Virus genome (UHGV): UHGV-0244400 | DNA length: 40,704 bases | Strand: one strand, 5' to 3' | Source: a virus | Shown: piece after piece, positions 2,771 through 34,001 of the stretch | Numbering within the stretch: position 1 is the stretch's first letter | Layout: every line of letters begins with the position of its first letter | Position numbers and translations under genes: made by a program | The notes under the pieces: generated by a model | Databases searched by the model: none | What the model was told of the DNA's origin: nothing | The model's input: the letters and a program-made list of their open reading frames with translations, nothing else

Positions 2771-2931
2771 TTTATCAGTTCGCTCCCATCCGTACCAGTC
2801 CGCAAAATCCCCTGAATATCAAGCTTTCCGTAGATTTACAGTTCGTAATGGTTCGCGTCAGATCGTTGACAGCCGCACTCCATGACGGGTAAAAAGTGGA
2901 TAAAATAATTTTACCCACCGGATTTTTACCC

Positions 2932-4089
2932 ATGCTCACCGTTAAGCAGATTGAAGCAGCAAAGCCGAAAGAAAAACCATACCGCCTACTCGATGGTAAT
3001 GGCCTGTACCTTTATGTCCCTGTATCCGGAAAAAAGGTCTGGCAGCTTCGCTACAAGATTGACGGTAAGGAAAAAATACTGACCGTAGGAAAATATCCGC
3101 TTATGACTTTGCAGGAGGCAAGGGATAAAGCATGGACTGCGAGGAAAGACATCTCGGTTGGCATCGATCCGGTAAAGGCGAAAAAGGCCTCGTCTAACAA
3201 CAATTCCTTTAGTGCGATTTACAAGGAATGGTACGAACACAAGAAGCAAGTCTGGTCAGTAGGGTATGCGACTGAACTTGCAAAAATGTTTGATGACGAC
3301 ATTTTACCCATCATCGGCGGTCTTGAAATTCAGGATATTGAGCCGATGCAACTGCTGGAAGTAATCCGCAGATTTGAAGATCGCGGTGCAATGGAGCGAG
3401 CCAACAAGGCCCGCAGAAGATGCGGCGAGGTTTTCCGTTACGCTATTGTCACCGGAAGGGCTAAATATAACCCGGCACCTGACCTTGCTGACGCCATGAA
3501 GGGATACCGCAAGAAAAACTTCCCGTTTCTTCCTGCAGACCAGATCCCGGCATTTAACAAAGCACTGGCAACATTTTCAGGAAGTATCGTATCGCTCATT
3601 GCGACCAAAGTTTTACGCTACACAGCCCTAAGAACGAAAGAGCTTCGTTCCATGCTATGGAAGAACGTCGATTTTGAAAACAGGATTATCACCATCGACG
3701 CCAGTGTGATGAAGGGTCGCAAAATTCATGTGGTCCCTATGTCAGACCAGGTGGTTGAACTTCTCACTACGCTAAGCTCTATCACCAAACCAGTATCAGA
3801 GTTTGTTTTTGCCGGGCGCAACGATAAGAAGAAGCCAATCTGCGAGAACGCGGTATTGCTTGTGATCAAACAAATCGGCTATGAAGGTCTGGAAAGCGGT
3901 CACGGATTCAGGCATGAATTCAGCACGATTATGAACGAGCACGAATGGCCTGCTGATGCTATTGAAGTGCAACTGGCACATGCCAACGGCGGATCTGTGC
4001 GCGGGATTTACAACCATGCTCAGTATCTCGATAAGCGCAGAGAAATGATGCAGTGGTGGGCGGATTGGCTTGATGAAAAGGTGGAGTGA
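2932..4089 (+). CDS. intS: P4-type tyrosine integrase (IntS-like)
   Basis: 385 aa from the first ATG (track ORF begins at an upstream GTG); N-terminus MLTVKQIEAAKP and C-terminal catalytic region typical of P4-family integrases; adjacent to tRNA. Confidence 0.9.
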   Translation: MLTVKQIEAAKPKEKPYRLLDGNGLYLYVPVSGKKVWQLRYKIDGKEKILTVGKYPLMTLQEARDKAWTARKDISVGIDPVKAKKASSNNNSFSAIYKEWYEHKKQVWSVGYATELAKMFDDDILPIIGGLEIQDIEPMQLLEVIRRFEDRGAMERANKARRRCGEVFRYAIVTGRAKYNPAPDLADAMKGYRKKNFPFLPADQIPAFNKALATFSGSIVSLIATKVLRYTALRTKELRSMLWKNVDFENRIITIDASVMKGRKIHVVPMSDQVVELLTTLSSITKPVSEFVFAGRNDKKKPICENAVLLVIKQIGYEGLESGHGFRHEFSTIMNEHEWPADAIEVQLAHANGGSVRGIYNHAQYLDKRREMMQWWADWLDEKVE

Positions 4090-4251
4090 TCAGCTTTAAC
4101 CACCTTCGAATAGCGCAAAGCTTTGCAATCCAGTGCAAAGCCTTATGTGTCTCATGATGTATCGCTCAATGTGTTTTGTGGTGATATACTTAGAATCTTT
4201 CCTAGCACACTGATTTTCATAGTGACAACTTTAAAGATCATAACTACACAC

Positions 4252-5367
4252 ATGACCAGACAACTTAATGGGATACAGGTTTTGCGTGGTATCGCAGCCT
4301 TAATAGTCGTTTTAGGACATAACAGATCTCTGTATGGGCACATAGATAGTGGTTCTTTTATAGACTATTTGACAATGCAGGCAACGTTTGGTGTTGAGGT
4401 ATTTTTCATAATAAGTGGATTCATAATCACTTATTCCACAAGAAATGCTTCAGGAGATTCACTCTCTAGATTTTATTCATTTCTGACTAAGCGCATATTT
4501 AGAATATATCCAATATATTTTATTGTATTAAGCGTATATATCTCTTTGTTTTGTTATAATTTTAAAGAAGGACATTTCGCTCTTTATGAATTTACCTTAA
4601 GTAACATCATCAAATCTTTCTTACTTATACCGCTTAATCCAAATATAAGCCCTCCATTTTATGGATGGGGGACTCTCATTGTGTCATGGACTCTTGGATA
4701 TGAGATGTATTTCTATATGGTTTTTTCATTTTCCTTATTAATTTCCAAGAAATACAGAAGCTATATATCAATGGCAATATTGATGGCTGTATATTTGTGC
4801 CTATCGGTTTCCTTTGGTAATCCAATAGACTTTAATGCCAATACATTTCATGTTCCTTTCTATGGGTATCATAGTTATCTAGGATTCATTGGAAATCCAA
4901 TAATATTTGACTTTGTACTAGGGATGATAATTGCCGAATGTTATTTGCGATTTCATGATAAACTGTTCGAAAATAAAACAATTGGATATCTATCTATTCC
5001 AGTTATAACTCTATGCTTTATGATGTGGCTTACAGGATTTAAATCAGGCCAAGGTATAACCAATACTGGATTTATTGCTTGCTTGATAGTCTTTTGCGCA
5101 ATATGCATAGAAACATCTACCAAGATTGAGTTTCCAAAGTTCATGGTATTGATGGGTACGTGTTCATACTCTCTTTACCTTATTCATGTTCCGATTAAAA
5201 AAATAATAGAGATATATGGAAAGGATATTCCATTCATTCCGCAAGAACCATCAGTAATGATGTATTTAATGTCCATCTCAGTATCAATAAGCCTGTCTAT
5301 ACCAATGTACTATCTGGTAGAGAAAAAATTTATAGATATAGGACATAATATTTCCAAAAAAATATAA
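4252..5367 (+). CDS. Acyltransferase family 3 integral membrane protein; putative O-antigen (LPS) O-acetyltransferase, serotype-conversion cargo
   Basis: Multi-pass hydrophobic protein with the N-terminal LNGIQVLRGIAALIVVLGHN motif typical of acyltransferase-3 (Oac/OafA-like); strongly AT-rich; located between int and tail-fibre genes; start chosen at first ATG (track ORF starts at TTG 4123). Confidence 0.75.
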   Translation: MTRQLNGIQVLRGIAALIVVLGHNRSLYGHIDSGSFIDYLTMQATFGVEVFFIISGFIITYSTRNASGDSLSRFYSFLTKRIFRIYPIYFIVLSVYISLFCYNFKEGHFALYEFTLSNIIKSFLLIPLNPNISPPFYGWGTLIVSWTLGYEMYFYMVFSFSLLISKKYRSYISMAILMAVYLCLSVSFGNPIDFNANTFHVPFYGYHSYLGFIGNPIIFDFVLGMIIAECYLRFHDKLFENKTIGYLSIPVITLCFMMWLTGFKSGQGITNTGFIACLIVFCAICIETSTKIEFPKFMVLMGTCSYSLYLIHVPIKKIIEIYGKDIPFIPQEPSVMMYLMSISVSISLSIPMYYLVEKKFIDIGHNISKKI

Positions 5368-5849: not shown

Positions 5850-6491
5850 TTAAATCCCTATTGCTATCCAGGAAATATTTGTCGCTGTTCTGTTAAATAC
5901 AGAGCCCGCACTCACTAACCACGCTGAAAGAAAAAAACCTGACTTATCGATGACCTGGCAACCTACAATATTTGCTGCACTGGCATCTGTTCCACCCCCT
6001 GTGACTCCGTAACATTGAGTCGGGAAAGGAATAGGGAAATTAATAATGATTGAACTACTGTTACTGGATGTATGATAGCCATACTGAATAATTTTACCAG
6101 ATGGAAATTTCATCCAACCCGGACCAGAAGCAAACGAAGCCATGTCTGGTATTTGGTTTGTCTTTGTCCCCACATTCCTTTTTGCCGCTTCTCCCAAACC
6201 AAGGTTTTTGAGAGCCGTTTTCACGGTGCCATCCGATTTGATATCGCCAAACGGATTCTTGCGGCTTAACAGCAGCGCACGAAGCGCGGTAAGCAGCTGG
6301 TCGTGCCGCGCCTTCTCAAGACTGGCACCGGATGCCTCAACAACGCTACAAAGTTCTTCCTGCAACATGTCAAAGTAGTCATCATCCAGATCGGTGGCAG
6401 GCGTGCCAGTCTGGGGGTTACCACGGGTAAAACCGTTCTTACCCGCGCCGAACTTATCCTTCTGCGCGGTTTTCGTGTCTATACGATGCAT
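5850..6491 (-). CDS. Tail fibre protein (short, Mu S-like position)
   Basis: 213 aa; last gene of baseplate cluster before tfa; Gly/Ser/Thr-rich C-terminal region. Confidence 0.7.
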
Positions 6492-6494
6492 GGA

Positions 6495-7079
6495 TTACTC
6501 CGGATATTTAAAAATTACGTAGGTATGCGACGGGCAGAGTTTGTTAAGCACACACTCGACAACGGTGTCACCCCAGATACGCAGTGCGGAATCACAGGGA
6601 TCGACACATGTCATCCAGGTGGTGTTGGTGGTGGTTGGCATGTTGACCTGCCAGTAATACCGCCATTCCGGCGCATTCACCGCGTCAGTACAGGCCGATG
6701 AGCAGGTGAACGTGCTTTTGTCGTATCGCGTGATGGTGGCATCTGGTCTGCCCAGGGCAGCAAGCTGTGCAAGATAAAAATCCTCGTTGATGCCGCCCGC
6801 CAGGTTAATCTTCGCATCCAGCCGTTGCTGACGCTGGCGAAGGGTCTGCGTTCCCGCCGGAATACATTCATCCGGCAGACCGCACAGACGCTCCCAGCGG
6901 TTTATCAGTTCAGTGGTGGTGCGCGGATCCAGCTCCCGCATCAGGGCATCCGCACGCTGATGAACACGGGTTAATGACGGTGCCGCACCGGCAATCGCCG
7001 GATCGCTGGCTGACCACGCCGGACCGGGCGGCAACAGTGCCGATAACAGGCGGATGTAATCATCGTTTGTCACGTCCAT
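6495..7079 (-). CDS. Baseplate/tail protein (Mu gp48-like, DUF2313-type)
   Basis: 194 aa; position between baseplate J-like gene and tail fibre as in Mu-like tails. Confidence 0.65.
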
Positions 7080-8128
7080 GAAATCGTCCCCAGTACCGCC
7101 AGTTCGTTTTTCGCAATGGAGATATTGTCCACCGGTGCAAGCAACTGATGGCTGTATTCCCCGTTCGCACCGGAAATCGCCTCACTGATACGCGATACCT
7201 TCAGTTCTCCCTGCGGATAACCATCACGCAGCAGGAACGAACGCAACTCCGCGGTAATGGCAGCCCGTATTTCCGGTGTGTCCGGCGTCACGCGGATATG
7301 AAAATCCACCGTATGTGCCACCGGCCTGAACACATACAAATCAGAGCCTGCCACCGGGGCCAGTGGCTCGATATGCAGCCTTGCCGCCGTTTCCGTTGAT
7401 TCTTCCGGAATGGGATTAATCAGGTCGCTGCTGGCAATCATCACACCGACAGTCCCCGTTCCCATCCAGTGACGGTATGTCCATGCGCGGGTAATGCCGG
7501 GCACTTCTTTAGCCCAGACGACATAGTCCCCGTCAGCCCCGCCCTGAGGTGTCCAGTAATACCGCTCAATGACGCGGGCGCGCCACGTTTCCAGCTCTTC
7601 AGTATCAAATCCACCTGTCAGGGTATCTGCCACGCCGGAAGACGGCAGACCATTCACCGGCGTGACCAGGATTAATGCCGTACCGTCGTCAGCGTTACCG
7701 ACCGCGCCTGCACTTGAGCAGGCGATCGGCACGCGCAGGACACCACCGGAGCTGGTTGCATCGGCAGTTGCCGTGTACTGAACCAGGTCATCGCGCTGAA
7801 TAACACTCCCGGCAGTCACCTTCAGGCCATCGCTGACACCTTCCCAGCGCATATACCCGCTGGCAGCCGTGGCCCCCTTGCGCGGACACCGTTTCATCGC
7901 AGCATGTCGCGCCAGCCAGGACTCATCGCACAGGTCAGGCAGCATATTCATTGCCAGATAATCGATGTACCCGTAAACCGTATGCAGCGCCGCCGCATAC
8001 ACCTTTGCCCGCACGTCTTCATCCATGCGCCGGAGCGTGTCGCTGACGTCCAGCCTGGCGAATAAATCGTTACGGAGCATACTGATATTTTCTGCCAGCG
8101 TCGGGCGCTGAAATTCACTGTCCGCCAT
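7070..8128 (-). CDS. Baseplate J-like protein (Mu gp47-like)
   Basis: 352 aa; size and position in baseplate cluster; overlapping start/stop with neighbours. Confidence 0.8.
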
Positions 8129-8543
8129 GCGTTATCGCACTCCACAGATCATCAAAAGAAATCATTACCGGTCCGTCACGACGCCAGAGGGTGATACTGT
8201 TACCCAGTTCATTAATCCCGGTGCGGCGGATATCCAGATCAATACGGGACACCACGCCGTCATCAATCATCCATTGCAGGCATTCACGGATATACCCCCT
8301 TACCGTCTGCACCAGCTGATTGGTCAGTTTGCTGCGCTGAAGCAGCCACAGTCGGGAGCCGTAACGGTCATTCTGTACCGCAGGCCAGGTATCCCCCCAC
8401 CATCCCATCGGGACGTCGGCGTTGTCATCAGGCTCCGCCCGCCGCCAGGTAAACAGGGAAATCACCACGGCGCGGGTCAGCGGATCCAGCGGTGCGCTGG
8501 CGCAGGTGCGTTTACCGTTCACCGTCAGCCACAGTTCCATCAT
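8115..8543 (-). CDS. Baseplate wedge protein (Mu gp46 / gp25-like)
   Basis: 142 aa; position between baseplate spike and J-like genes. Confidence 0.7.
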   Translation of the reverse strand: MMELWLTVNGKRTCASAPLDPLTRAVVISLFTWRRAEPDDNADVPMGWWGDTWPAVQNDRYGSRLWLLQRSKLTNQLVQTVRGYIRECLQWMIDDGVVSRIDLDIRRTGINELGNSITLWRRDGPVMISFDDLWSAITHGGQ

Positions 8544-9088
8544 GCCTCCATCGCTTTATCAGGTTTGTCGGTGTTACTGCCCTGACCGTTCTCTCTGTGA
8601 CAATGCCCGTTATAGGCAAGCCGCATCGCTGACATGGTGGTGCCGCCGGAGTCGCACAGGTCTTTCACCTGTCCGGTCACTTCAAGGTCCATTTCAAAAC
8701 GTGCTTCAGGTGCATTGCGAAACGTGATCGTTTTACCTGCACCGTCCACTACGATCCCCTCCCGGGTCAGCGTCACGGACTGCCCCTGATCGTCATAGAC
8801 AGCCACCTCACCCGTCTGCAGCCCTTTCAGGCGGTAGCGCCGGTCCGACACCGTAACAACCACCGCATGAGAACGGTCGCCATCCGGAAACAACACCACC
8901 GCTTCCGCACCGCTGTTTGCCCTTGCGGTAAAACCGTAGGGTTCAAGATGTTCAACCCCGGCTTTGGGTTCACCGGCAATCAGGGACACATCCACGGTCT
9001 GACATTTCGTGGCGGCACTGATGCTTTTCACCACGGCCCGCCCAATCAGGCCGAGGAGTTGTCGCTGCATGGCTTCAATCGTCCTCAT
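8540..9088 (-). CDS. Baseplate assembly protein V / central spike (Mu gp45-like)
   Basis: 182 aa; position and size in Mu-like baseplate cluster. Confidence 0.7.
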   Translation of the reverse strand: MRTIEAMQRQLLGLIGRAVVKSISAATKCQTVDVSLIAGEPKAGVEHLEPYGFTARANSGAEAVVLFPDGDRSHAVVVTVSDRRYRLKGLQTGEVAVYDDQGQSVTLTREGIVVDGAGKTITFRNAPEARFEMDLEVTGQVKDLCDSGGTTMSAMRLAYNGHCHRENGQGSNTDKPDKAMEA

Positions 9089-10167
9089 CAGAACGGGTCC
9101 TCCTGTACTCTGGCTTTTTTCTTTTTCCGCGCGCCGGGGGCTTCTGGTTCAGGCAGATAAGCATCAGGTGGGCCGACACGGATTTCCGTCAGGGTGCCGT
9201 TCTGGTCCTGAGTAAACGTGACTTCCGAGACAAGCAGTTCGGTATTGTCGAAACCACAGACCGGATCGAAGACAATCACCCGCTGGTTGGGCTGCCACAG
9301 CGTACCGTTACCCTGTCGCCAGCCCTGCACCACATAGGTGGTTTCATCCGTCCGCGCCGCCCGTTGTCGGGCTTCAAAGTCAGCACGCGCAATACAGCCT
9401 GCCCCCGTGGCCTGCCCTGTCTGCCTGATATACATCGGACGGTAACGGGCAATAAATGCGTCCTCTGTGCGGGCCCGCAGCGCGGTGGTGGTGGCCTCAC
9501 CGAAATCATCGTCGTTTCCGGCACGCTGCCCCGCCACCTGGTAAACTGAAAACCGCTCCCGGATACTCTTCTCCGTATCACAGGAAAGGATGTTTTCCCC
9601 AAGTACCAGCGCGGTATGTGCCCGCGTTGAGCCAATACCGCCAATCACCAGCCTGCCGTGCGGGTCGTCATAAGCCAGCGCCTGCTGCTGACCGAGTATT
9701 TTGTTGATCACCTCGATCACCGTTTCACCGTGATCAGGCTGGACATCAGGAATAACACCCGACGGCGCATCGCTGTTCACCACCTCAATGCCGAAAGGCG
9801 CAGCAAGCGCCTGCGCAATCTGTACCAGCGATCGTCCGTTAAACTGTGTCGGTTCGGCTGCACAGTCAATCAGGTCAGCAGTCAGACTACGTCCGGCAAT
9901 ACCGGTGCTGACCGAACGGGCATCGTAACGAACGGGGGTCGCCTCCACCCAGCCGGTGATCACCAGCTCATCACCAATCAGCACTTCCACTTTTGAACCA
10001 TTTTTAATGCGCGGCTGAAGCGTGGTGATACCCTCATCTCCCGGCCACTGGCGGGTGATCTCCACGCTGAAATCCCGCGCCAGCCGTTCAATACCGGCAC
10101 CGATGCGCACCGATGTCCAGCCATTCCACTCCCGGCCATTTACCCGTAGCGTGACGTTATCGTTCAT
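9088..10167 (-). CDS. Tail protein, P2 gpD / Mu gp44-like (baseplate hub)
   Basis: 359 aa; position after DNA-circularisation gene; translationally coupled (start overlaps upstream stop). Confidence 0.75.
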   Translation of the reverse strand: MNDNVTLRVNGREWNGWTSVRIGAGIERLARDFSVEITRQWPGDEGITTLQPRIKNGSKVEVLIGDELVITGWVEATPVRYDARSVSTGIAGRSLTADLIDCAAEPTQFNGRSLVQIAQALAAPFGIEVVNSDAPSGVIPDVQPDHGETVIEVINKILGQQQALAYDDPHGRLVIGGIGSTRAHTALVLGENILSCDTEKSIRERFSVYQVAGQRAGNDDDFGEATTTALRARTEDAFIARYRPMYIRQTGQATGAGCIARADFEARQRAARTDETTYVVQGWRQGNGTLWQPNQRVIVFDPVCGFDNTELLVSEVTFTQDQNGTLTEIRVGPPDAYLPEPEAPGARKKKKARVQEDPF

Positions 10168-11498
10168 TGCACTGGCACCTTCAGAGGGATCACCGGCACA
10201 AAGCCGGGATGCGTAATGGCATTACGCCGAATAATGTCCGCGTCACGCGCCGCGTTATCAAACCAGGTCGCCGCCAGCACCAGCGCGGGTAAAACCTCAT
10301 CCGGTGTGCGATGAATGATCCGTGCAGACTGCTCAAGGCGCGTGTTGATATCCGCATTCAGATCTGCTTTCACCCGGCGCAGCGCCAGAAACAGCGCATC
10401 ACTGGTTGTACGGGACAACTCCTTATCAATTGCCGTATTCAGTGTGTCGCGAATGTCAGTCAGTTCTTCCCACGTCGGCAGGTCAACCGTGTTTTTCACC
10501 GCCGGTGCATTGTTCAGTGCCGGATGCGTGACGGAAGGCCAACCGGTGCTCTGCGCAGGTGTTGTTGCCTGCCCCACTGTGGCATTCTGCATCACCGCGG
10601 AAGTTGTTGGCGCAGGCAATCGGATGACGGCATACGCCGCTTCGCTGATTGCGGTCGTACGAAGGGTGCTGGCAACCACGTTACGCTGCTGCGTCGCCGT
10701 GGCGGTGGTTTTACTGTCCGTTTTCCAGACGCCGCGCGGTTGCAGATCGCTGCCGAGGCTGACACCGGAAAGCGTTTTGATCATGGTGACCAGGTCGCTG
10801 GCGTTACCATAAAGGCGTTTCCCGGTACGCCACATTTTCTGCACCTGCTCAACGAAATTTTTGCCTGACGATGGCGGCGGCAGAAGTACCGAGATATCAC
10901 CCTGCAACAGCCTGGCGGCATCCGATACGGCAGAATCCACCACTTTCATCGCATCAGAAACATACCCAAGCATTGTGCTGGCATTACCGATAACGTCGTT
11001 CTGCACAAAATCCGCCACGCCATCGATACTGAAACCGCTGAAGCTGTCACTGATGCAGTCATCCAGTGCAGAACAGGATGACATCAGCGTCTGCGCCGTC
11101 GCCACGCCTGATGTGGGGTAAGAGAGATCTCCCGCTTCGACAAACTTCAGGTCAAAGCGGACAATACGCCCTTCACTCTTCGATGTGCTGACCCGAACTT
11201 CCCCGTCAACACAGACTTTCAACTCACCGTATGTCGGGTGGACAAGCGTGCCGGGACCGGGTTTATTCAGCGCGTCAATCAGGCGATCGCGCTGGTCAAA
11301 GCAGTCATCTCCCACCACATAAGCCGTGATGGACGGGCGGAAAGTGACTTTTCCCAGATCTTCGGTATAGGGTTTGTCGCGGTTCGGATATTCGTGTGTT
11401 TCCACACGACGGCCGGTTCCCGCACTTTCTTCTTCAACCTTAAACGGCACACCTCGAAATGACGCATCCTGAAGCCTGTCTTTCCACGTCATATACAC
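10164..11498 (-). CDS. DNA circularisation protein (Mu N / gp43-like) tail component
   Basis: 444 aa; position between tape measure and baseplate hub as in Mu. Confidence 0.75.
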   Translation of the reverse strand: MYMTWKDRLQDASFRGVPFKVEEESAGTGRRVETHEYPNRDKPYTEDLGKVTFRPSITAYVVGDDCFDQRDRLIDALNKPGPGTLVHPTYGELKVCVDGEVRVSTSKSEGRIVRFDLKFVEAGDLSYPTSGVATAQTLMSSCSALDDCISDSFSGFSIDGVADFVQNDVIGNASTMLGYVSDAMKVVDSAVSDAARLLQGDISVLLPPPSSGKNFVEQVQKMWRTGKRLYGNASDLVTMIKTLSGVSLGSDLQPRGVWKTDSKTTATATQQRNVVASTLRTTAISEAAYAVIRLPAPTTSAVMQNATVGQATTPAQSTGWPSVTHPALNNAPAVKNTVDLPTWEELTDIRDTLNTAIDKELSRTTSDALFLALRRVKADLNADINTRLEQSARIIHRTPDEVLPALVLAATWFDNAARDADIIRRNAITHPGFVPVIPLKVPVQ

Positions 11499-11499
11499 T

Positions 11500-11533
11500 C
11501 CGAAAATAAAAAAGCCACCTATTAGAAGGTGGC
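11500..11533 (-). terminator. Rho-independent terminator downstream of the moron gene (hairpin gccacc..ggtggc followed by T-run on minus strand)
   Basis: Inverted repeat plus TTTTTTATTTT on the transcribed (minus) strand immediately 3' of ORF 11554..12084. Confidence 0.5.
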
Positions 11534-11553
11534 CTTGTAATGAATTTTATTAA

Positions 11554-12084
11554 TTAGCGAGTCAGAAACAACGAATCTTTATACTTTTGCTGTTGTTCAT
11601 TTAAATACTTAGCTGTTTCATCGCTGGCAAATGGAAATATTACCGTATTTTTAGGCATGGTAATTTCTTTTTTGTCCAGCGTCAGAGTAAACATAGGAAC
11701 ATACTGAGCAGAGTAACGCACCGCAGAAACGAGCTCTAGTTTAGACTCTTCAATAACACTTAAATTATCCAGGCTAACTTTCTCTTCATCTTTTTTCTTT
11801 GACGCATTTAAAGTTTTTATTACTTTATTTAATTTCTCCTGAAAATCCTCCTTAAAGTTTTCAGGATTGCCGTCGACAACAAGAATCTGTTCACCCTGAT
11901 TATCTGGAAAAATAATCTTTGCACTTATCAATTTATTTTCTTTATAAACATCACCAAGTTTTATGGCTCCTCCAGATAACTGAATAATATGTTCATCTTT
12001 AAAGGAGATGTTGCCAGAGATTATGAGAGATGAAAAAACAGCCGCTGCTCCAAGAATTATACTTGCTGTGATATAGCCTTTCAT
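11554..12084 (-). CDS. Moron: secreted or membrane-anchored protein of unknown function inserted in the tail operon
   Basis: 176 aa; N-terminal hydrophobic signal/anchor (ITASIILGAAAVFSSLIIS), Lys/Glu-rich body; markedly AT-rich versus flanking tail genes; own terminator; interrupts the otherwise Mu-like gene order. Confidence 0.6.
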   Translation of the reverse strand: MKGYITASIILGAAAVFSSLIISGNISFKDEHIIQLSGGAIKLGDVYKENKLISAKIIFPDNQGEQILVVDGNPENFKEDFQEKLNKVIKTLNASKKKDEEKVSLDNLSVIEESKLELVSAVRYSAQYVPMFTLTLDKKEITMPKNTVIFPFASDETAKYLNEQQQKYKDSLFLTR

Positions 12085-12175
12085 TTTTCGCCTATTAACA
12101 TTTTTCTAAATGTGCATTAATTCTATCACTCTATTTATGACTTACAACCAGCAATACCTGTGAGGGGAATCCTGG

Positions 12176-14008
12176 CTACCAAAATCGGGTATAGCCAACA
12201 TCGTGATTTATATCAATGCCACTGGAGCGTGTTTCCGTAACCCGCATACCTGGTGGCATATTTATAAATGATACCTTGATCTCACCATCAACTTTTGGCG
12301 CAGAAGCTTTGTTAATCATGAAGGGATTCGGGCCTGTGGCATCGGAGGCGTTGTTTGACTGAGCCAGATCTACCGCCGGATAAGGTGTGTATCCCCGCGC
12401 CGGTATTCCCGTCCCATAAGCATCATAAGCACCCGCGCCCCACTGCGCAGAGTTAATGGCATCGACCGTGTCACCGGAACTGTCGGTAAACCACTCAATA
12501 ATTGGCTTCAGCTTATCCCACATATCCTGAAACCACTTAACAACCGGTCCCCAGTTATTGATCACCATCCCCAGCGGCGACCAGGCAAAAACCTTCTTCA
12601 GAAGTTCCCAGCCAGCCTCAAAATAAGGACCAATGGTTTCCCAGAGCTTCTTAAAATAAGGTCCGACAACATCCCAGTTAGTGATAATTAATCCCGCAGC
12701 CAGAGCAATCGCCGTCGCAATCATGCCAATCGGCGTCATCGACATAATCCTGCTGACAATACTGATGGCACTGCCCACGCCCATCAATCCCAGTTTCAGA
12801 ATCGCAAGACCGGCAGCAAGCCCGACGACGCCGCGAATAACCCGGGGATTTTCATCCGCAAACTTCGTGAATTTCTCCCCCAACTCCCCCAGCCACTGCG
12901 TGATATTTTTGGCGTCACCAGAAAATGCGCCGCCAATAGCTGCAAGACCGTTAGTTGCGGTCCCCGTCATTGCCTCCCACAGGTTGGACAGCGTACCAAG
13001 CTGAGCCTGAACACGTTTATTCAGGCTGGCCTGTTTATTCATCTTCTGCTGGATCTGATCGTAGCCATCCTTTCCTTTATCGATTAGTGCATTGACCACC
13101 TGAAGGGTTTCGGCATCATCACCAAATATTGCCTTAAGTACGCCTGTTCGCTTAACGTCGGTCAGTTTTCGCAGCTTTGCCAGTTGCCTGAACATGTTAT
13201 CAAGACCGCCAAAACTCCCTTTGCCGTCAGTAAAATCGAGCTGTACCCCGAGTTTCTGGCGGGCCATGATTTTATTGACGTCCCTGATTTTCTTAACGCT
13301 TAATCCGGACTGGATAACTTTTCGCAGGGCGTTACCTGCCGACTCCCCGTTCATCCCCATCTGATCCATCATGACGCTGATGGGGGCAAGGCTCTGTGCA
13401 GCCTGAAGACCGTCCTTGTTCACCATCTTCAGAACAGAGCTGGTTTTAGTGAAGAAGGACAACATGTTGGTATCGTCAACGCCCAGATAAAACGCCTTCT
13501 GGATAGTGTCGAACAGCCCCATCATGTCTTCTGACGCCGTTCCGGTAGCATCCTGCATCTTTGCGGCAAACTCGGCAGCCGCTTCCGGTGTTTTTTTCAG
13601 TTGTACCGCAAGATAAGCTGTCGCTTTACCCACACCGCCAAGAATGTTTTCTGCCGGGATCCCCTGACGCACCAGCATCTGCATCATGTTCTGGAAATCA
13701 GCCGTTGTACCGGGTAGCTGATTACCCAGGCCAATAGCCAGTTTATTGATGTCCTGAAAGCTCTTTCCAACCTCGCCGTTCGCATCCATCATGGCGACTT
13801 TCAGCCCGGTGGCGGCGTTTTCCTGATCGGCATAAGATTTCAGGGAAAGCGTCAGACCCGCTGCCAGTCCGCCACCAAGCGCCAGCCCACCCTGTGACGC
13901 TTCTTCCGCCTGGCGTTTAAATCCCCGGATTTTCTTTTGCATTTTCGACAGCGCGGGAGAAAGCCTGTCGACACCGGTGATCAACGCCTTAAGCTCAAAT
14001 TCCGCCAT
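12176..14008 (-). CDS. Tail tape measure protein
   Basis: 610 aa; Ala/Gly-rich with hydrophobic central segment; position after chaperone genes. Confidence 0.85.
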   Translation of the reverse strand: MAEFELKALITGVDRLSPALSKMQKKIRGFKRQAEEASQGGLALGGGLAAGLTLSLKSYADQENAATGLKVAMMDANGEVGKSFQDINKLAIGLGNQLPGTTADFQNMMQMLVRQGIPAENILGGVGKATAYLAVQLKKTPEAAAEFAAKMQDATGTASEDMMGLFDTIQKAFYLGVDDTNMLSFFTKTSSVLKMVNKDGLQAAQSLAPISVMMDQMGMNGESAGNALRKVIQSGLSVKKIRDVNKIMARQKLGVQLDFTDGKGSFGGLDNMFRQLAKLRKLTDVKRTGVLKAIFGDDAETLQVVNALIDKGKDGYDQIQQKMNKQASLNKRVQAQLGTLSNLWEAMTGTATNGLAAIGGAFSGDAKNITQWLGELGEKFTKFADENPRVIRGVVGLAAGLAILKLGLMGVGSAISIVSRIMSMTPIGMIATAIALAAGLIITNWDVVGPYFKKLWETIGPYFEAGWELLKKVFAWSPLGMVINNWGPVVKWFQDMWDKLKPIIEWFTDSSGDTVDAINSAQWGAGAYDAYGTGIPARGYTPYPAVDLAQSNNASDATGPNPFMINKASAPKVDGEIKVSFINMPPGMRVTETRSSGIDINHDVGYTRFW

Positions 14009-14419
14009 GTGTGCGTTTCTCCTGCTCTATCCTGTTTGCCTGACTGACCAGCAAGGGAATTTCACTGATCGGCATATTCAGCAATTCGAAGGGATTAATG
14101 CGCCAGTAGCTGGCGCAGTCAAAGAAGCGATCAGTGAGGTATTCAGCCGTCAGGCCTGGAGGAAAAAACCAGCCACAAGCCACGCCGCTGCATTCAGGTC
14201 TGCCGGAGACATCTGGTCGACAGAGCTTTGCGGCACTTTCGCCAGCCGCACAATGTATTTCGATACCACATGTGCCAGAAGTCTGACGGACTCATCCTGA
14301 TTCATCTGGTAGGGATACCCCAGCTCGCGGACATCTTTCCCGGTGGGCTCATCAAACTCCAGTACGGAGAGTGTCTCGCCATGAGCGGTAATCGGTTTCT
14401 TTAACTCAAGCTCTTTCAT
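13995..14419 (-). CDS. Tail assembly chaperone, putative -1 frameshift-extended form (fusion of 14150..14419 frame with 13995..14183 frame)
   Basis: Slippery heptamer T TTT TTC at about 14162..14168 in the zero frame 4 codons before the stop; the -1 frame stays open for 54 further codons to the tape-measure start. Confidence 0.4.
14150..14419 (-). CDS. Tail assembly chaperone (short form)
   Basis: 89 aa ORF between tube and tape measure; ends just past a UUUUUUC slippery heptamer. Confidence 0.6.
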   Translation of the reverse strand: MKELELKKPITAHGETLSVLEFDEPTGKDVRELGYPYQMNQDESVRLLAHVVSKYIVRLAKVPQSSVDQMSPADLNAAAWLVAGFFLQA

Positions 14420-14775
14420 TACTGGTAATCCCCTTCTTCACCGTGGAACTCAAGATCAACCGTGCCTTCTTCGGCATTATGGTTCGCTTCTCCGTGCAGC
14501 CAGGCGGACGACAATACATAGACCTGACCGTTCGCCAGCTCGGCAGTGATAGTCATCTCATCAGACGAGGTGATTTTGCTCACCGGAAAATTCTTCGGCA
14601 CCTTGAAGGTCCCTTTGACATAAGGCGCACGGTGAGTTTCCTTGCGGTCCACTGAACCGTCCAGGCCGATGATGTCATCATTGACCGTCCTGTTCATGGG
14701 CACCTCAATGCCGCCGGTCAGCGATAGCTGCTGACCGTCAATTTTGAAATAACAGGTTCCCCCGATACGGGCCAT
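14419..14775 (-). CDS. Tail tube protein (contractile tail)
   Basis: 118 aa; directly downstream of sheath gene with overlapping stop/start. Confidence 0.8.
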   Translation of the reverse strand: MARIGGTCYFKIDGQQLSLTGGIEVPMNRTVNDDIIGLDGSVDRKETHRAPYVKGTFKVPKNFPVSKITSSDEMTITAELANGQVYVLSSAWLHGEANHNAEEGTVDLEFHGEEGDYQ

Positions 14776-16271
14776 TATGCAAACTCCTCTGAATACTGAA
14801 GACGGAACTGGTTAACCACGGCAAAGACACGCAACTGGTTAACATAGTCAGGCGGGAACAGCGTGTTCAGGCGGTTCGGATCGCTGGCATCACGCTCCAC
14901 AACCAGGTACTGCTTAAACAGTTCGTAGTTTTCCACGATCCCCGCACGCTCAAGCTGACGGTAGGTTGCCAGCAGTTCCCCTTTGATCACCGCCGGGGTG
15001 ACAATCGCCTGACCGGGACCAAAGCGGGTACCGTCACTGGCAAGCTTGTGACGCCCGTACTTACTGGTAATGACGGATTTCAGTTTGCGCAGTACATACG
15101 CGCTGGTATGCAGCGTCTCACTGTCGAGGTAACTGTTATCCGCAACCCCGTAAGCGTTTTTCCTGTACGTGGTGACATCACGCTGAATGCGCAGTACCCC
15201 GCTTTCGACATACGCCGTTGCCACGCCATGAGACAGCAGGGTCTGTTGTTCGGTCATCGTGAACCGTTTCCCCTTCGGCGCAGGCAGCATACCCACCAGC
15301 TCACCGGTCTGCGTGGGACGTGCCGGATCGTTGCGGATAAACACCGCTGCGCGGGCGGTACGGCTTGCCGCCAGCTCGTCGGCAGGCGTCTGGGTCTCTT
15401 TTTCGTACCCCGCCAGGGTGATGTGCTGCTGGTTAAACTGGTCACCTGCGTTCACCAGTTCTGACAGTGTGCCGGTCTTTGCCGTATACACATGACCATA
15501 CAGCTGACGCGCATAGCTCCAGCGACCGCTGGTATCGTTCATCTCGGTCACCAGCGTGTTAACGGAGGCCGTGTCGTTGAACGGCAGACCGATATAATCA
15601 AACGGCTCATCCGCCATTGCAGCCACCGCGCCGGTGAGAACTGGAGCGCCCGTTCCGGCGGTACCCGTCGCCACGGCAATCTGTACGCCCGCTGGCAGCA
15701 CTTCGCCCCCACCAAACCCGTAGTAATTGAGGCTGACAGGAATTTCATTCCCGCAAAGCCCCTTATGACGCGCGGTCAATGTGACCACGCCTGCCGAAGA
15801 TGAGGCCGTAAACGGCAGGGCCGGAACGGCATTGATGGCATCCTGGATACTGCTGGCAATCGTCGTGACGTTATCGCCGTTAGTCACCGGTGCCTGCACG
15901 CGGGTACGTCCCACATAAACATTCACCGTGCCGGTTTCGGTTGCCGCCCCGGTCACCGTCAGCGTAACTGTTGCCGCCGCGCCCGTGGATTCAGGAACGG
16001 CAATCACATACAGTTCGCCAAACGGGTCAGTCTGGCGATAAGCCTCGACCATACGCGCCAGCTGACTTCCCGCACCACAAATCTGGCGTGCATAGTCTGC
16101 CGACGGCATCAGCACCAGACTGTTGGCAACAATCTCTGCACCGTTATTGGCATGACCAATCAGCAGCGATGCTCCGCTGTCCTGTGCAGTATTCGCCGCC
16201 TGGTTATCCATTTCCGCATAAAACAGCGGAACCAGCGTATTCGACGGAATGGTGTTAAAGCTTATCGTCAT
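14775..16271 (-). CDS. Tail sheath protein (contractile tail)
   Basis: 498 aa; size and sequence character of myovirus sheath; followed by tube. Confidence 0.9.
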   Translation of the reverse strand: MTISFNTIPSNTLVPLFYAEMDNQAANTAQDSGASLLIGHANNGAEIVANSLVLMPSADYARQICGAGSQLARMVEAYRQTDPFGELYVIAVPESTGAAATVTLTVTGAATETGTVNVYVGRTRVQAPVTNGDNVTTIASSIQDAINAVPALPFTASSSAGVVTLTARHKGLCGNEIPVSLNYYGFGGGEVLPAGVQIAVATGTAGTGAPVLTGAVAAMADEPFDYIGLPFNDTASVNTLVTEMNDTSGRWSYARQLYGHVYTAKTGTLSELVNAGDQFNQQHITLAGYEKETQTPADELAASRTARAAVFIRNDPARPTQTGELVGMLPAPKGKRFTMTEQQTLLSHGVATAYVESGVLRIQRDVTTYRKNAYGVADNSYLDSETLHTSAYVLRKLKSVITSKYGRHKLASDGTRFGPGQAIVTPAVIKGELLATYRQLERAGIVENYELFKQYLVVERDASDPNRLNTLFPPDYVNQLRVFAVVNQFRLQYSEEFA

Positions 16272-16425
16272 CGGTGTTCACCTTTTTATTCACGCGCCGG
16301 ATATCACCCGCTGCTTCACGGCGCAGCCAGTAGTTGTTCTCGTCAACATTTCGCCCTTCGGCGGGCAAAAGGTCGCCGCGGGCAGGATCAGGAACTGACC
16401 GCCCTTTAACAGGTTTGACAAACAT
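16255..16425 (-). CDS. Small hypothetical protein (56 aa) between tail-terminator-like gene and sheath
   Basis: ATG preceded by GAGGA 8 nt after upstream stop; overlaps sheath start by 17 nt; below the ORF-track length cut-off. Confidence 0.3.
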   Translation of the reverse strand: MFVKPVKGRSVPDPARGDLLPAEGRNVDENNYWLRREAAGDIRRVNKKVNTDDDKL

Positions 16426-16433
16426 GAGGATCC

Positions 16434-16994
16434 TCAGGAAGGAAGGGTTATTTCGGTGTGATGTTCGATATCGCCGTCAGGCCCGTTACCGGGCTCGAGA
16501 TAATCAACATCAATCGCCAGCGTTTGCAGTTCATCCAGACTGTTCAGATCATCCTGCTGGCGGGTATCGTCTTCAGTCAGCTCGCTGATGACCGAAAAAT
16601 CGAACTGATAAATCAGCTCATGACGATTCAGATCCAGCAGCGTGCCGCCGTCATAGGTAATCGGGTTACCGCACGCCTCCGGGTTCCAGCCCAGCAGAGC
16701 CTTAAAGAGCATCTGCCGGACATCGTCCACCACATCATACGAGGCAAACTGACCGCGCTCATCACGCCCGTTACTCAGTATGACAACCACGGAGAAACCC
16801 TCTTTCAGCTCCTGCCAGTAGTCGGTCTGGCTTTTATTTTCTCCCGGAGAATCATCACCCGGCACCACATACGCCGCCGGGAGTCTCAGCTTTCCGACCT
16901 CCGGCAGATTTTTGAACTGTGCCGCGCCTGCCACCCGGTTTTCAAAATACGGGCAGCGGGCACGCAGCGCAGCAATAACAGGCGTCAGTTTCAT
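16434..16994 (-). CDS. Tail completion / sheath terminator-like protein (Mu gp37-like)
   Basis: 186 aa; acidic; position between head-tail joining genes and sheath. Confidence 0.55.
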   Translation of the reverse strand: MKLTPVIAALRARCPYFENRVAGAAQFKNLPEVGKLRLPAAYVVPGDDSPGENKSQTDYWQELKEGFSVVVILSNGRDERGQFASYDVVDDVRQMLFKALLGWNPEACGNPITYDGGTLLDLNRHELIYQFDFSVISELTEDDTRQQDDLNSLDELQTLAIDVDYLEPGNGPDGDIEHHTEITLPS

Positions 16995-17497
16995 CTGTGT
17001 CGTCGCTCCGGCTTCAGTGATTTACGTAATTCCCGCGCCAGAAAATAGCGTGTCCAGCTGCGGTTCTTTTGAAGCGTTTCCACCATAAAGTTATTACGTG
17101 GAGCCAGTCGCCAGCCGCTGCCACCGGATGCACCACGATGATGGCTGCGACGACGCTTTGCCCCTCGCCTCACGCCATAGAACAAAAAAGCCGGATAAAA
17201 ATCACCGGTGATGCGGCGGTTTCCCTCACCATTACGCTGGTTAGGGGCTATACGTGCCATAAAACCGGGGCGATGTTTACTGGCTCTGGGTACCATATAA
17301 CCAATCGAACGTGCCAGGCGTCCGGTCTGATAACCGGGGTTTTCACCCGGTGCCGACCGCGCACGGCGCATCACCAGCCGACGGGCATCACGCATATGAC
17401 GCTGACCAATCGTGACAAACGCCCGCCGGACACGGGCGCGGTTAAAGCGCATCTCCGCGGGCTGCTGAAAATCAACGTGCAAAAAGGAAGTCGTCAT
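16991..17497 (-). CDS. Virion morphogenesis / tail-component protein (HK97 gp10-like), highly basic
   Basis: 168 aa; Arg-rich; position in head-tail joining cluster. Confidence 0.55.
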   Translation of the reverse strand: MTTSFLHVDFQQPAEMRFNRARVRRAFVTIGQRHMRDARRLVMRRARSAPGENPGYQTGRLARSIGYMVPRASKHRPGFMARIAPNQRNGEGNRRITGDFYPAFLFYGVRRGAKRRRSHHRGASGGSGWRLAPRNNFMVETLQKNRSWTRYFLARELRKSLKPERRHR

Positions 17498-17882
17498 TGT
17501 TGCCTCCGTGACTCTGCCTACATTCGCCCAGCTCCGTACACTCCAGCAGCAGAAAGCGCCGCGCCCCGTTCAGATCGCGCTGACGTTTCACCCGATACAC
17601 ACTGTCACCGCAGACCACCTCATAATCAGCGGTGATCCCCCGGCGGTAGCGAATGGTGATGTAATGGGTGATGGCGTCTCCGATCTGCGCGGTTTCCTGC
17701 CAGGTGGTGGCACTGGTCTGGATAACCTTCGCCCATGCCCGGAACGCAACCGGGTATTGAGGCTCCACGCCAAAGTTATCCGCGGGCATATCCACCCGCT
17801 GGCGGATCAGGACGCGTTTGTTCAGTTCACCGGGGTCCGGCAGAATGTAGGTTGCGCTGGTCTGCGCCTGACGAATTTTCAT
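17472..17882 (-). CDS. Head-tail adaptor / head closure protein
   Basis: 136 aa; position downstream of connector gene. Confidence 0.6.
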   Translation of the reverse strand: MKIRQAQTSATYILPDPGELNKRVLIRQRVDMPADNFGVEPQYPVAFRAWAKVIQTSATTWQETAQIGDAITHYITIRYRRGITADYEVVCGDSVYRVKRQRDLNGARRFLLLECTELGECRQSHGGNNDDFLFAR

Positions 17883-18202
17883 TGCGGAAAGTACCTGTAC
17901 GGGCCGACAAGCCAGCCAAAACTCTGCGGCATGTCGAGTTTCTCCACTTCCGTAACCGACGAGCGGTTTTCGTAAAAATGGCTGATAAGCATCAGCATCC
18001 CCAGACGAATATCATCCGGCAGGTGCAGCCCGTCCGGATCGCTGTCCGGAATGGATTCATCCGGTGCATAGAGCTTCCGGTTCAGATACGTTTCCGTCCG
18101 CTTTTGCGCCGCACAGGCCAGCAGTTGCAGATGGCGGTCATCAGCATCGAAATCCTCATCCAGCCGGAGTTGGGCTTTAATCTCTTCCATTGTCAGAAGC
18201 AT
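17879..18202 (-). CDS. Head-tail connector (gp6-like DNA packaging) protein
   Basis: 107 aa; position after capsid gene cluster. Confidence 0.6.
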   Translation of the reverse strand: MLLTMEEIKAQLRLDEDFDADDRHLQLLACAAQKRTETYLNRKLYAPDESIPDSDPDGLHLPDDIRLGMLMLISHFYENRSSVTEVEKLDMPQSFGWLVGPYRYFPQ

Positions 18203-18204
18203 AC

Positions 18205-18405
18205 TCAGCTCTCTTTACTGGTCGTGGCTTTTTTCTCTTTTGCCGCTTTACTGCTTTTTGCACTGGTTCCGCGCTCAGCTAACCCGGCCTGAAGTGCAAT
18301 CTCCTGCACCCGGGCAGGAAGCGCCCCGTCGTCATACTCACCGGCCCGAATGACCTCAACACGCATACCGTCCGGTGACCATTTCAGATCTTGTTTCAGG
18401 ATCAT
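18205..18405 (-). CDS. Small hypothetical head-module protein
   Basis: 66 aa ORF between major capsid and connector genes, tightly packed. Confidence 0.45.
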   Translation of the reverse strand: MILKQDLKWSPDGMRVEVIRAGEYDDGALPARVQEIALQAGLAERGTSAKSSKAAKEKKATTSKES

Positions 18406-18426
18406 GATTCTTCACCCGTCAGAACA

Positions 18427-18447
18427 GGGGGCGCGGTTCCGCGCCCC
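18427..18447 (-). other. GC-rich stem-loop (ggggcgcgg..ccgcgcccc) immediately 3' of the major capsid gene
   Basis: Perfect 9-bp inverted repeat with 3-nt loop in the 49-bp gap after the capsid stop; no T-run, so likely mRNA-stabilising/attenuating hairpin rather than a full terminator. Confidence 0.4.
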
Positions 18448-18454
18448 TGAATGA

Positions 18455-19660
18455 TTACGCCGCTGCAATCTTCAGCAGTTTGATGGCCTGCGAATCGACC
18501 AGCATCCCGCCGGTGCGCTTGGTGGTATAAAAACCGACAAACGGTTTATTGGTGTACGGATCACGCAGAATGCGGGTGCCGATACGGTCAACGATGGTGT
18601 AACCCCGTTTGAAGTTACCAAATGCAATGGCTTTCGCATCAGCGGCGATATCCGGCATCTGTTCGTTTTCAGCGATACCGTAACCCGCCAGAGAGGACGG
18701 CTGCCCCAGTTCCAGCCCCGGACGCCACAGATAGTTACCCTCGGTGTCTTTCAGCAGACGGATGGCAAACAGGCTGTTGTTGTTCATCATGAACTTCGCG
18801 CCAGTGCGGTGTGCCTTTCGCAGCGTGTAAATCAGTTTGATAATGGCGTCTGCGGTCACCGCGGTCGCTTCGCCGGATACAATATGCTGAAGTTTGCCGA
18901 ACGCCCGGACCTTATCGGTTTCATCAGTGGATTCATACGCCAGGAACCCTTTCGGCTTCTTGGTACCATCGCCGGTGGTAAAGGCAATTTCTTCCTGTTC
19001 GGCAAATTCGGTTGCCAGCTCGCTGTTGATCCAGGCCTCCACGTTGAAGAAGGCATCATCCAGCATTTTCTGGGTGGCCTGCGGGTTGCCGTAGATTTCC
19101 CCCATGAGAGGTTCAATCAGCTCCAGTCTGGAGGTGGCAGTCTGGGATCGCGTATCCGTTTCCCCCACCCATCCGGAAGCCGTGCCGCCCAGATTCACCA
19201 GTTTTTTGTAGTCGGAACCGCCAACGGTGATCACCGTGGCTTCCTGGCGCATCACCACTTCATCTTTCAGCAGGGTGAGAATGTTGCGATCCAGCGCTTC
19301 CGGCACGGCATAGCCACCATCTTCATCGGTGCCCACCTGCAATGCCTTACGCTCCAGATCGCGCAGACCATCTTCACGGCCTTTACGCAAAAAGCCCACA
19401 AACGCTTCTTTATGCTCGGTGGCCAGTTTATTTTGCGCGCCACCTGCCGGACGTTTCAGCTCAAGCAGCTCTTTTTCAAGATCGCTTTTGAGATTTTCCA
19501 GCTCGCTGAGTTTCCCGTTCAGGGTTTCCACCTGCCCGGCAAGCTTGCCTTTTTCCTGCTCAATCGCATCCACGCGCTTGTCGTTCTTTGCTTTGAAGTC
19601 GTCAAACTTCTGCTGCAGCTCCTGCGCGACCTGTTCGACATCTTTAATATCTACCGCCAT
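18455..19660 (-). CDS. Major capsid protein (HK97 fold family)
   Basis: 401 aa; N-terminal coiled-coil/scaffold-like delta region followed by capsid domain; follows prohead protease. Confidence 0.9.
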   Translation of the reverse strand: MAVDIKDVEQVAQELQQKFDDFKAKNDKRVDAIEQEKGKLAGQVETLNGKLSELENLKSDLEKELLELKRPAGGAQNKLATEHKEAFVGFLRKGREDGLRDLERKALQVGTDEDGGYAVPEALDRNILTLLKDEVVMRQEATVITVGGSDYKKLVNLGGTASGWVGETDTRSQTATSRLELIEPLMGEIYGNPQATQKMLDDAFFNVEAWINSELATEFAEQEEIAFTTGDGTKKPKGFLAYESTDETDKVRAFGKLQHIVSGEATAVTADAIIKLIYTLRKAHRTGAKFMMNNNSLFAIRLLKDTEGNYLWRPGLELGQPSSLAGYGIAENEQMPDIAADAKAIAFGNFKRGYTIVDRIGTRILRDPYTNKPFVGFYTTKRTGGMLVDSQAIKLLKIAAA

Positions 19661-19674
19661 CGTATTTCTCCTGA

Positions 19675-21544: not shown

Positions 21545-21726
21545 TATTTACCTCCGCCGACAGACGACTGTGTACGGTCGAGATATCGCGCCACCAGCCA
21601 CGACCAGAACAGGCACAACGCCCCGGCAACAACAAACCCCGCCGGGGGATAAATCAGCCAGGCACCATACGCCAGCAAAAGCGCCCCCAGCACGCCCACC
21701 AGAGGCGCGAGAATCAGCATGATCAT
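21544..21726 (-). CDS. Small hydrophobic protein (2 predicted TM helices) between terminase and portal
   Basis: 60 aa, almost entirely hydrophobic; start overlaps portal-side junction. Confidence 0.4.
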
Positions 21727-21737
21727 AATTACCTCAG

Positions 21738-33284: not shown

Positions 33285-34001
<717 letters not shown>

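Follow-up and report, generated by a model that had tools for sequence, protein, structure and literature searches.

The virus genome UHGV-0244400 (40,704 nucleotides, referred to here in its full length as the window) is a lambdoid prophage of Escherichia coli, of the SfV/SfII type, that has a contractile Mu-like tail and all its late genes on the minus strand. The phage is of the SfV-like temperate kind and combines a lambdoid regulatory region containing Q with an HK97-type head and the Mu-like tail. Within its tail operon, between the tape-measure gene and the gene for a baseplate-hub protein with a DNA-circularisation (DNA_circ_N) domain, sits an open reading frame (ORF) of 176 amino acids (aa), which a preliminary description had singled out as an AT-rich moron encoding a secreted protein. 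This gene, and the junction in which it is found, are the subject of the present analysis (Table 1).

Table 1. Features of the tape-measure/hub junction and of the surrounding prophage. Positions are those of the window; GC, guanine plus cytosine content as a fraction; E, expectation value.
Feature	Position	Strand	Remarks
Moron ORF, 176 aa, ATG start	11554-12084	-	WP_000679481-like, phrog_5485; GC 0.343
Hydrophobic N-terminal segment, codons 3-24	12013-12078	-	From hydropathy; signal-anchor or possibly a cleaved signal peptide (cut between IIS and GN)
Non-coding spacer from tape-measure stop to moron start, 91 bp	12085-12175	-	Candidate promoter and weak Shine-Dalgarno AGG
Candidate sigma-70 promoter	12147-12120	-	-35 TTGTAA 12147-12142, 16-nt spacer, extended -10 TGaTAGAAT, hexamer 12125-12120
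Intrinsic-terminator-like hairpin and T-run	11501-11536	-	Stem 11536-11511, T-run 11510-11503; then hub GGAG ribosome binding site 11501-11498
Tail tape-measure gene, 610 aa, upstream neighbour	12176-14008	-	PF10145, E 1.3e-26; phrog_28, phrog_17727
DNA_circ_N/Mu gp43-like baseplate-hub gene, downstream neighbour	10164-11492	-	PF07157, E 4e-34; phrog_184 baseplate hub, E 7e-146
Q-family antiterminator gene	26770-27288	-	PF06530 Phage_antitermQ, E 1.3e-25
CI-like repressor gene	33288-34001		
Integrase gene	2896-4089	+	Adjoins host genes mlaA and yfdC and a tRNA-Arg gene
Acyl_transf_3 gene	4123-5367	+	AT-rich, about 0.36 GC; directly after the integrase gene

The anatomy of the insert is essentially as it had been described. 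The GC content of the ORF and of the 677-bp junction as a whole is 0.34 against 0.51-0.60 in the flanks, the neighbouring genes having 0.51-0.57, and only 3.3% of 531-bp stretches within the window are equally AT-rich. The upstream non-coding DNA, put earlier at 90 bp, measures 91 bp, and the predicted hairpin with its run of T residues is present directly downstream. A 10-bp GC-rich stem, 17 nt past the moron stop codon, makes up the hairpin, and TTTTTTATTTT comes after it. The structure folds with a free energy of -15.6 kcal/mol (z = -5.6), and none of 200 shuffled sequences folded as well. The hub gene probably starts at the ATG at 11492 and not at the GTG at 11498 given in the mechanical ORF list, since a GGAG lies at 11501-11498 and RefSeq gives the gene 1329 bp in near-identical prophages; this start leaves a non-coding gap of 61 bp after the moron. 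In every pair of homologues compared pN (the non-synonymous difference per site) was far below pS (its synonymous counterpart), and for the single pair with unsaturated synonymous sites dN/dS was 0.078. The ORF is therefore a real gene under purifying selection. It matches phrog_5485 over its full length (E 1.2e-107, residues 1-176 of 176), but both phrog_5485 and phrog_34391 are annotated in PHROGs as 'unknown function' and membership adds no functional information.

That the insert interrupts genes that are normally contiguous has been confirmed by comparison with related phages. The tape-measure and hub genes are separated by about 60 bp in SfI, SfII, SfV and vB_EcoM-689R6, and by 24 bp in SfIV-type prophages. 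A census of the junction was made on 40 E. coli records, evenly spaced among those matching it. The 176-aa gene was present in seven, the junction was empty in 18, with the genes again joined by about 60 bp, and other genes were present in five, encoding a 164-aa protein (two records), a 225-aa protein (one) or a protein with an OB fold (two). In the remaining ten the match was limited to the flank on the side of the hub gene; five of these were opened and contained the 225-aa gene, the OB-fold gene, a 162-aa gene or the tight junction of the SfIV type. Among 5426 complete E. coli genomes 178 (3.3%) carry the 176-aa gene while 1076 match some part of a 901-bp junction query, so that the gene is variable at this position among related prophages. 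The existence of viable phages without it (SfI, SfII, SfV), together with the 18 empty records, shows that the gene is dispensable. Position, composition and dispensability all bear out its classification as a moron, that is, a dispensable accessory cassette, and the place in which it sits is a recombination-prone cargo slot of an SfV-like temperate phage.

Five cargo families alternate in this slot, with no detectable sequence similarity between any two of them (all pairwise E >2). Besides the 176-aa protein with its transmembrane (TM) anchor these are a 164-aa protein with a classical signal peptide, also encoded by the isolated phage SKA5, a 162-aa protein, again with a classical signal peptide, a 225-aa lipoprotein with the lipobox LLGGC, and a 150-aa protein in which a TM helix is combined with an OB fold (PF12869, tRNA_anti-like). 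An N-terminal export signal or membrane anchor is present in all five families. On a rough estimate an N-terminus of this kind occurs in about 30% of the proteins of E. coli, and five of five would then arise by chance in about 0.2% of cases. The tape-measure proteins beside empty, 164-aa, 225-aa and OB-fold junctions (loci L002-L007) are 97-99% identical to that of the window over the C-terminal part on which identity was measured. This indicates that the cargo has been swapped on one backbone. The tape-measure protein beside the 162-aa allele is only about 25% identical, and those of the other alleles examined are also more diverged. The OB-fold cargo is encoded on the other strand and converges with the tape-measure gene; being antisense to the late operon, it could be expressed only as an independent unit. 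It matches phrog_8545, annotated 'superinfection exclusion Sie-like', with an E of 2e-41. A PADLOC search of the slot cargos gave no match. Both a full-length 150-aa, TM-anchored form of this cargo and 5'-truncated forms without start codon or TM helix (L005 1622-2008, L023 2720-3172) were seen, and the latter suggest decay of cargo inside the slot. At the 162-aa allele the cargo has one hairpin (AACCCTACTT...AAGTAGGGTT) on its upstream side, immediately after the tape-measure stop (L025 3184-3247), and a second hairpin with a T-run on its downstream side, so that the cassette is bracketed by two stem-loops.

The position of the 176-aa gene between two tail genes, and its orientation with them, are the only features that would suggest a structural or assembly accessory of the Mu-like tail, for example a chaperone of the tape-measure or hub protein. 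Such a role is extremely improbable. The protein has an N-terminal membrane helix and belongs to a family whose domain is exported (see below); the gene is missing from SfI, SfII, SfV, SfIV and most related prophages; unrelated secreted proteins replace it at the same place; and it survives alone in a prophage remnant of Lelliottia. The conservation across related tail modules that the preliminary description had named as evidence of a structural component is thus not what is found.

The downstream hairpin, which had been regarded as the gene's own terminator, is better considered a constant of the junction. A hairpin and T-run lie 5-8 nt before the hub GGAG in every co-oriented allele, with differing stem sequences, and they are retained at empty junctions, both in E. 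coli prophages (L002 1594-1653) and in SfI, SfII and SfV. In SfII the structure (KC736978 11928-11966) is annotated as a putative rho-independent terminator. The 24-bp junctions of the SfIV type (L024, L026) are without it. Since an equivalent structure stands at sites with no insert it is not diagnostic of the insert and cannot be assigned to it. It could be that each cassette brings its own hairpin and that the empty sites are scars of a lost moron; alternatively the hairpin could serve as a landing pad for cassettes or, at the empty junctions, as an attenuator setting the ratio of tail to baseplate proteins. Its position before the hub gene implies that the baseplate genes depend on read-through. 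In lambdoid phages Q carries late transcription through terminators, and by analogy read-through of the 11511-11536 hairpin would be expected here. A search of the junction against Rfam returned only sub-threshold look-alikes of leaders and terminators, and no convincing direct or inverted repeats that would mark an insertion mechanism were found at the junction.

The upstream spacer contains a candidate sigma-70 promoter that matches the consensus at 9 of 12 positions and has the TG of an extended -10 element. A -35 TTG and a -10-like nAnAAT occupy the same aligned columns upstream of the homologues in Leclercia and Lelliottia (three diverged homologues), although elsewhere the spacers share only some 50% identity. 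Independent transcription of the moron from this candidate promoter is plausible.

The N-terminal signal or membrane anchor and the Lys/Glu-rich body attributed to the protein are both borne out. Residues 3-24 are hydrophobic, with Kyte-Doolittle values of up to 2.1, and the body contains 21 Lys and 14 Glu. There is no Cys in any of the 176 residues, and the protein therefore lacks the lipobox of the Cor/Llp/Ltp-type lipoproteins. An AlphaFold2 model built with 61 diverse sequences has a mean predicted local distance difference test (pLDDT) score of 91.4 and consists of a helix (residues 2-23) followed by a beta-sheet (32-72, 114-143) packed on two long helices (74-93, 149-171). In the model a membrane helix at the N-terminus leads into a domain of the alpha/beta class, about 150 aa long, for which a periplasmic location is predicted. 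In two family members the hydrophobic segment is preceded by an N-terminal extension of cytoplasmic type, about 115 aa long in P0096 and about 40 aa in P0100, which indicates that in these proteins the segment is a true internal TM helix. The E. coli protein has a positive-inside pattern, with Lys2 to one side of the helix and a net negative charge after it, and this fits an orientation with the N-terminus in and the C-terminus out; cleavage after Ser23 may possibly occur. The near-invariant positions of the family are Gly, Leu, Tyr and Glu residues in the beta-strands.

Further evidence for the location of the domain came from a Foldseek search against viral models, in which there was one significant match (E 8e-7, TM-scores 0.56/0.67) to a 144-aa 'lipoprotein' of the Pseudomonas syringae phage ventosus, a strictly lytic phage of 97 kb (gene at MG018930 51995-52429). 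The ventosus product begins MKRLLFLGITALLLTGC and has a classical lipobox, LLTGC. The family profile aligns with the mature portion of this product at the two motifs of highest conservation and scores 19.7 bits, compared with at most 1.2 bits for five unrelated controls. A homologue with a lipobox implies that the domain family is exported. A fold search of the PDB with the same high-confidence model (pLDDT 91) gave no neighbour and a search of the PDB by sequence profile no match; nor was there any match to the protein in Pfam, NCBIfam or PADLOC, or to any of the 61 family members in Pfam. A weak match to phrog_15137 'endonuclease' (E 0.014) was not corroborated by other searches and has been set aside. 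Literature searches on the protein accession, and on tRNA_anti-like proteins together with exclusion, yielded nothing relevant.

These data also bear on whether the protein might be an abortive-infection or defence effector, anchored in the membrane and active once phage DNA has entered, by analogy with AbiP and PdpSau. The combination of TM helix and OB fold seen in another cargo of the slot is the architecture of those two proteins (PMC10127798), and in mobile islands remote homologues of the 176-aa protein have Mrr-type nucleases as neighbours. The domain is placed outside the cytoplasm, however, by the positive-inside pattern and by the lipoprotein homologue, and neither nuclease or NTPase motifs nor conserved catalytic-type residues were found, nor a PADLOC match to the protein. 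On balance we think an effector of this kind quite improbable.

The distribution of the family is informative about both the age and the use of the gene. Near-identical copies account for 93 matches in IMG/VR, and a profile search of 1.84 billion representative proteins recovered 78 clusters, nearly all of them about 175 aa in length and sharing the hydrophobic segment at the N-terminus. Its members occur only in phages and mobile elements. Homologues with 52-58% identity occur in Leclercia and Lelliottia and one with 41% in Edwardsiella, the latter being the single locus found in a scan of genome contigs; those of 41-55% identity that occupy the same slot are in prophages of Leclercia adecarboxylata, L. 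pneumoniae and Edwardsiella anguillarum and in metagenomic contigs. The enterobacterial homologues examined, those of Leclercia, Lelliottia and Edwardsiella, have kept a low GC of 0.35-0.375, and synonymous sites are saturated between the gene and the slot homologues of Leclercia and Edwardsiella. A recent foreign acquisition had been implied, but diverged homologues in the same slot, saturation and a shared low GC make the gene an old resident instead. Its rate of divergence exceeds that of the tube, sheath and hub proteins (52-55% identity against 67-88%). Nor is it bound to a single kind of tape-measure protein: at two Leclercia-type loci the copies are 85% identical while the adjoining tape-measure proteins are only 39% identical. 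Within E. coli, across 65 IMG/VR loci (L038-L117, compared with window 11493-12175) identity is 99.4% in the spacer and 99.4-99.5% in spacer and gene together but 97.6-97.9% in the flanking genes, so that the cassette is some 4-5 times less diverged than the tape-measure and hub genes on either side. This low divergence is consistent with a recent spread of the cassette within E. coli by recombination.

At greater distance (about 24% identity) homologues are found in small integrative islands with an integrase, serine recombinases, a DUF5906 primase and an Mrr nuclease, indicating that the family travels on mobile elements generally. In these loci (L018 5401-5943 and 4634-5203, L021 4935-5501) the gene adjoins a serine invertase/resolvase of about 189 aa (PF00239) on the opposite strand, and in L018-L020 it also follows a 180-aa ORF without a Pfam match. 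The tail module with the gene was also seen on a 64-kb circular record of E. coli MS 69-1 labelled a plasmid (L037, NZ_CP146678.1); plasmid records hold 4 of the 183 places of the gene, and these copies might represent phage that is excised or episomal, or an artefact of assembly. A tblastn search of 50,697 phage records with the protein and with a Pseudomonas homologue gave no match, so that no isolated phage in that collection has the gene by this method; the relative in ventosus was found only by fold and profile.

A solitary copy in Lelliottia amnigena (JBPJUX010000018.1, L012 5806-6581) deserves particular attention. It is intact and adjoins icd, in the e14-type attachment region, where the last 41 codons of a tape-measure gene, the gene and the hairpin are all that remains of a prophage. 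Compared with the Leclercia copies it has a pN of 0.09-0.12 and a pS of about 0.75. This remnant is the best available evidence that the gene may be of use to a cell that makes no virions, and it lends indirect support to expression from the repressed prophage.

The Lelliottia remnant weighs differently on two further explanations. In the first the protein would be a late helper of the lytic cycle, silent in the lysogen, which masks entry sites of the producing cell, as T5 Llp does, so that progeny are not wasted on lysing cells and debris, or which modulates lysis or periplasmic events. This would agree with the orientation of the gene inside a Q-dependent late operon, with the weakness of the promoter evidence and with the homologue in a lytic phage. 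Against it, near-identical phages without the gene are viable, purifying selection persists where no phage remains, and the antisense cargo shows that the slot hosts independently transcribed genes, and we regard a purely late role as unlikely. In the second the gene would be a lysogenic-conversion or host-fitness factor unrelated to phages which, like lambda bor and lom, helps the lysogen to tolerate envelope stress, to colonise or to survive in serum. The survival of an intact gene in a fully decayed prophage speaks for such a factor, morons often encode them (PMC3594210), and the window prophage has another envelope-modifying conversion gene, that for the Acyl_transf_3 protein adjoining the integrase. 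Against it stand a divergent family member that is a lipoprotein of a strictly lytic P. syringae phage, remote homologues that occur in marine or environmental mobile islands and not in pathogens, and a Sie-like annotation on an alternative cargo of the same slot. A benefit to the host of this sort also seems to us rather unlikely.

We tentatively favour a role in superinfection exclusion after adsorption, at the periplasm or inner membrane. It is context that favours this over a host-fitness factor: an alternative cargo at the same slot has a Sie-like annotation, all the cargo is envelope-targeted, and the lipoprotein relative in a lytic phage points to a stake in phage-phage competition and not in host virulence. 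The protein would be tethered to the inner membrane by its N-terminal helix with the alpha/beta domain of about 150 aa facing the periplasm, where the domain would hinder the tape-measure/tube-tip machinery of a phage attempting entry and keep its DNA from the cytoplasm. In the lysogen the gene would be expressed at a low level from its own weak promoter, with transcription stopped at the hairpin, whereas in lytic growth it would also be transcribed as part of the Q-antiterminated late operon, reading through the hairpin to the baseplate genes. The reality of the gene, its dispensability, the polymorphism of the slot and the export of the domain family are shown here, whereas the exclusion phenotype, its target, the details of the topology and the activity of the promoter are all aspects that we infer.

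The nearest described parallel to this arrangement is found in HK97. Its gp15, the first moron, was reportedly described by Juhala and colleagues in 2000 and Cumby and colleagues in 2012. The protein sits in the inner membrane, is made by the prophage and prevents genome injection in a way that depends on the tail (PMC3594210). The GC content of the gp15 gene is 0.33 and that of its flanks 0.58 and 0.51, with a hairpin and T-run abutting the ribosome binding site of the next gene. Both genes are thus AT-rich single-gene inserts in a tail operon, adjoining the tape-measure gene and followed by a hairpin and T-run abutting the next ribosome binding site, both encode an N-terminal hydrophobic helix and both are missing from close relatives. 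They differ in that gp15 has only 62 aa and essentially no extramembrane domain, whereas the 176-aa protein has a predicted folded periplasmic domain, and in that the gp15 gene lies upstream of the tape-measure gene in a siphovirus while the 176-aa gene lies downstream of it in a contractile-tail module.

Envelope-tethered exclusion proteins include the lipoproteins Ltp of Streptococcus thermophilus phage TP-J34, Llp of T5 and Cor of phi80 and N15, as well as SieA of P22. The T4 protein Imm has been reported to bind the T4 tape-measure protein and so provides a precedent for exclusion proteins that act on tape-measure proteins (bioRxiv 10.64898/2026.03.06.709160). Like Imm, Ltp, Llp, Cor and SieA, all of which act before DNA enters the cytoplasm, the 176-aa protein is small and phage-encoded and is predicted to be anchored in the envelope, and the occurrence of both TM-anchored and lipoprotein members in its family mirrors the use of TM helix or lipid among the known exclusion proteins. 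It differs from them in having no detectable homology to any (Pfam, PHROGs, NCBIfam, PADLOC) and a fold without a PDB neighbour.

Several observations weigh against exclusion. The protein has no similarity to any known exclusion or defence protein in Pfam, NCBIfam or PADLOC, PHROGs giving only 'unknown function', and it is unrelated to HK97 gp15 (BLASTP E 17, profile 0.9 bits). Promoter-like matches in the AT-rich DNA of the junction occur at the rate expected by chance (five found, 4.3 expected), several homologues have no promoter match in the same crude scan, and the gene has the same orientation as the late operon and so may be a late gene only. The gene is found paired with tape-measure proteins that are only 36-77% identical to each other, and with partners so diverse a specific coupling to the adjacent tape-measure protein is not evident. 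Finally, the Sie-like label, from which the argument by position is drawn, is one PHROG annotation on a different, unrelated cargo.

The slot as a whole invites comparison with known hotspots of anti-phage genes in phages and satellites, such as those reportedly described in P2 and P4 by Rousset and colleagues in 2022 and the moron loci carrying Tai (PMC11364771). It resembles these in its fixed position, in the alternation of unrelated accessory genes on near-identical backbones and in having at least one cargo annotated for exclusion. It differs in lying inside a tail structural operon and in carrying single small envelope proteins, as opposed to multi-gene cytoplasmic defence systems. Text searches of the literature for a described tape-measure/DNA-circulation hotspot found nothing relevant. 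A bolder proposal, which is possible but which we put forward with some doubt, would be that the tape-measure/hub junction of SfV-like prophages is a dedicated and previously undescribed hotspot at which single-gene, envelope-tethered anti-phage cassettes are exchanged, and that with the 176-aa protein a new family of exclusion proteins begins, comprising some 78 clusters at 50% identity, with TM-anchored and lipoprotein forms and a fold without a solved relative. The target of such a family would be the tape-measure/hub complex that contractile or other tailed phages eject into the periplasm.

Elsewhere in the prophage, the start of the window matches the mlaA-yfdC-tRNA-Arg-intS side as annotated in strain C4. 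The Acyl_transf_3 gene occupies the integrase-adjacent position at which Sf-type serotype-converting phages carry their O-antigen-modifying genes, and on account of this position it is probably a second lysogenic-conversion or exclusion module of the same prophage. The structural module (window 6188-24442) is 98% identical to that of the prophage at thrW in ECZP248. The match is confined to this part, which rules out that the whole window corresponds to the ECZP248 prophage, and the two differ in the early region and on the integration side. That only the structural module is common to both indicates that the tail/head module with its cargo has been combined with different lambdoid backbones and attachment sites.

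The locus is of added interest as a multi-allelic slot with only envelope-targeted cargo, for the uncharacterised family to which the 176-aa protein belongs and for a Lelliottia remnant that has kept this one gene. If the proposed role in exclusion proves false it would still be a clean and well-populated natural case of cassette exchange inside a structural operon. If it is true, the slot would represent a set of at least five small, unrelated and uncharacterised envelope candidates for the blocking of phage genome delivery, one of them with a confidently predicted fold that has no solved relative. The outcome of phage therapy against E. coli would also be affected, with 3.3% of complete genomes having this allele and more having others, and such proteins would serve as probes of the periplasmic and inner-membrane stage of DNA injection in contractile-tailed phages, which is poorly understood.

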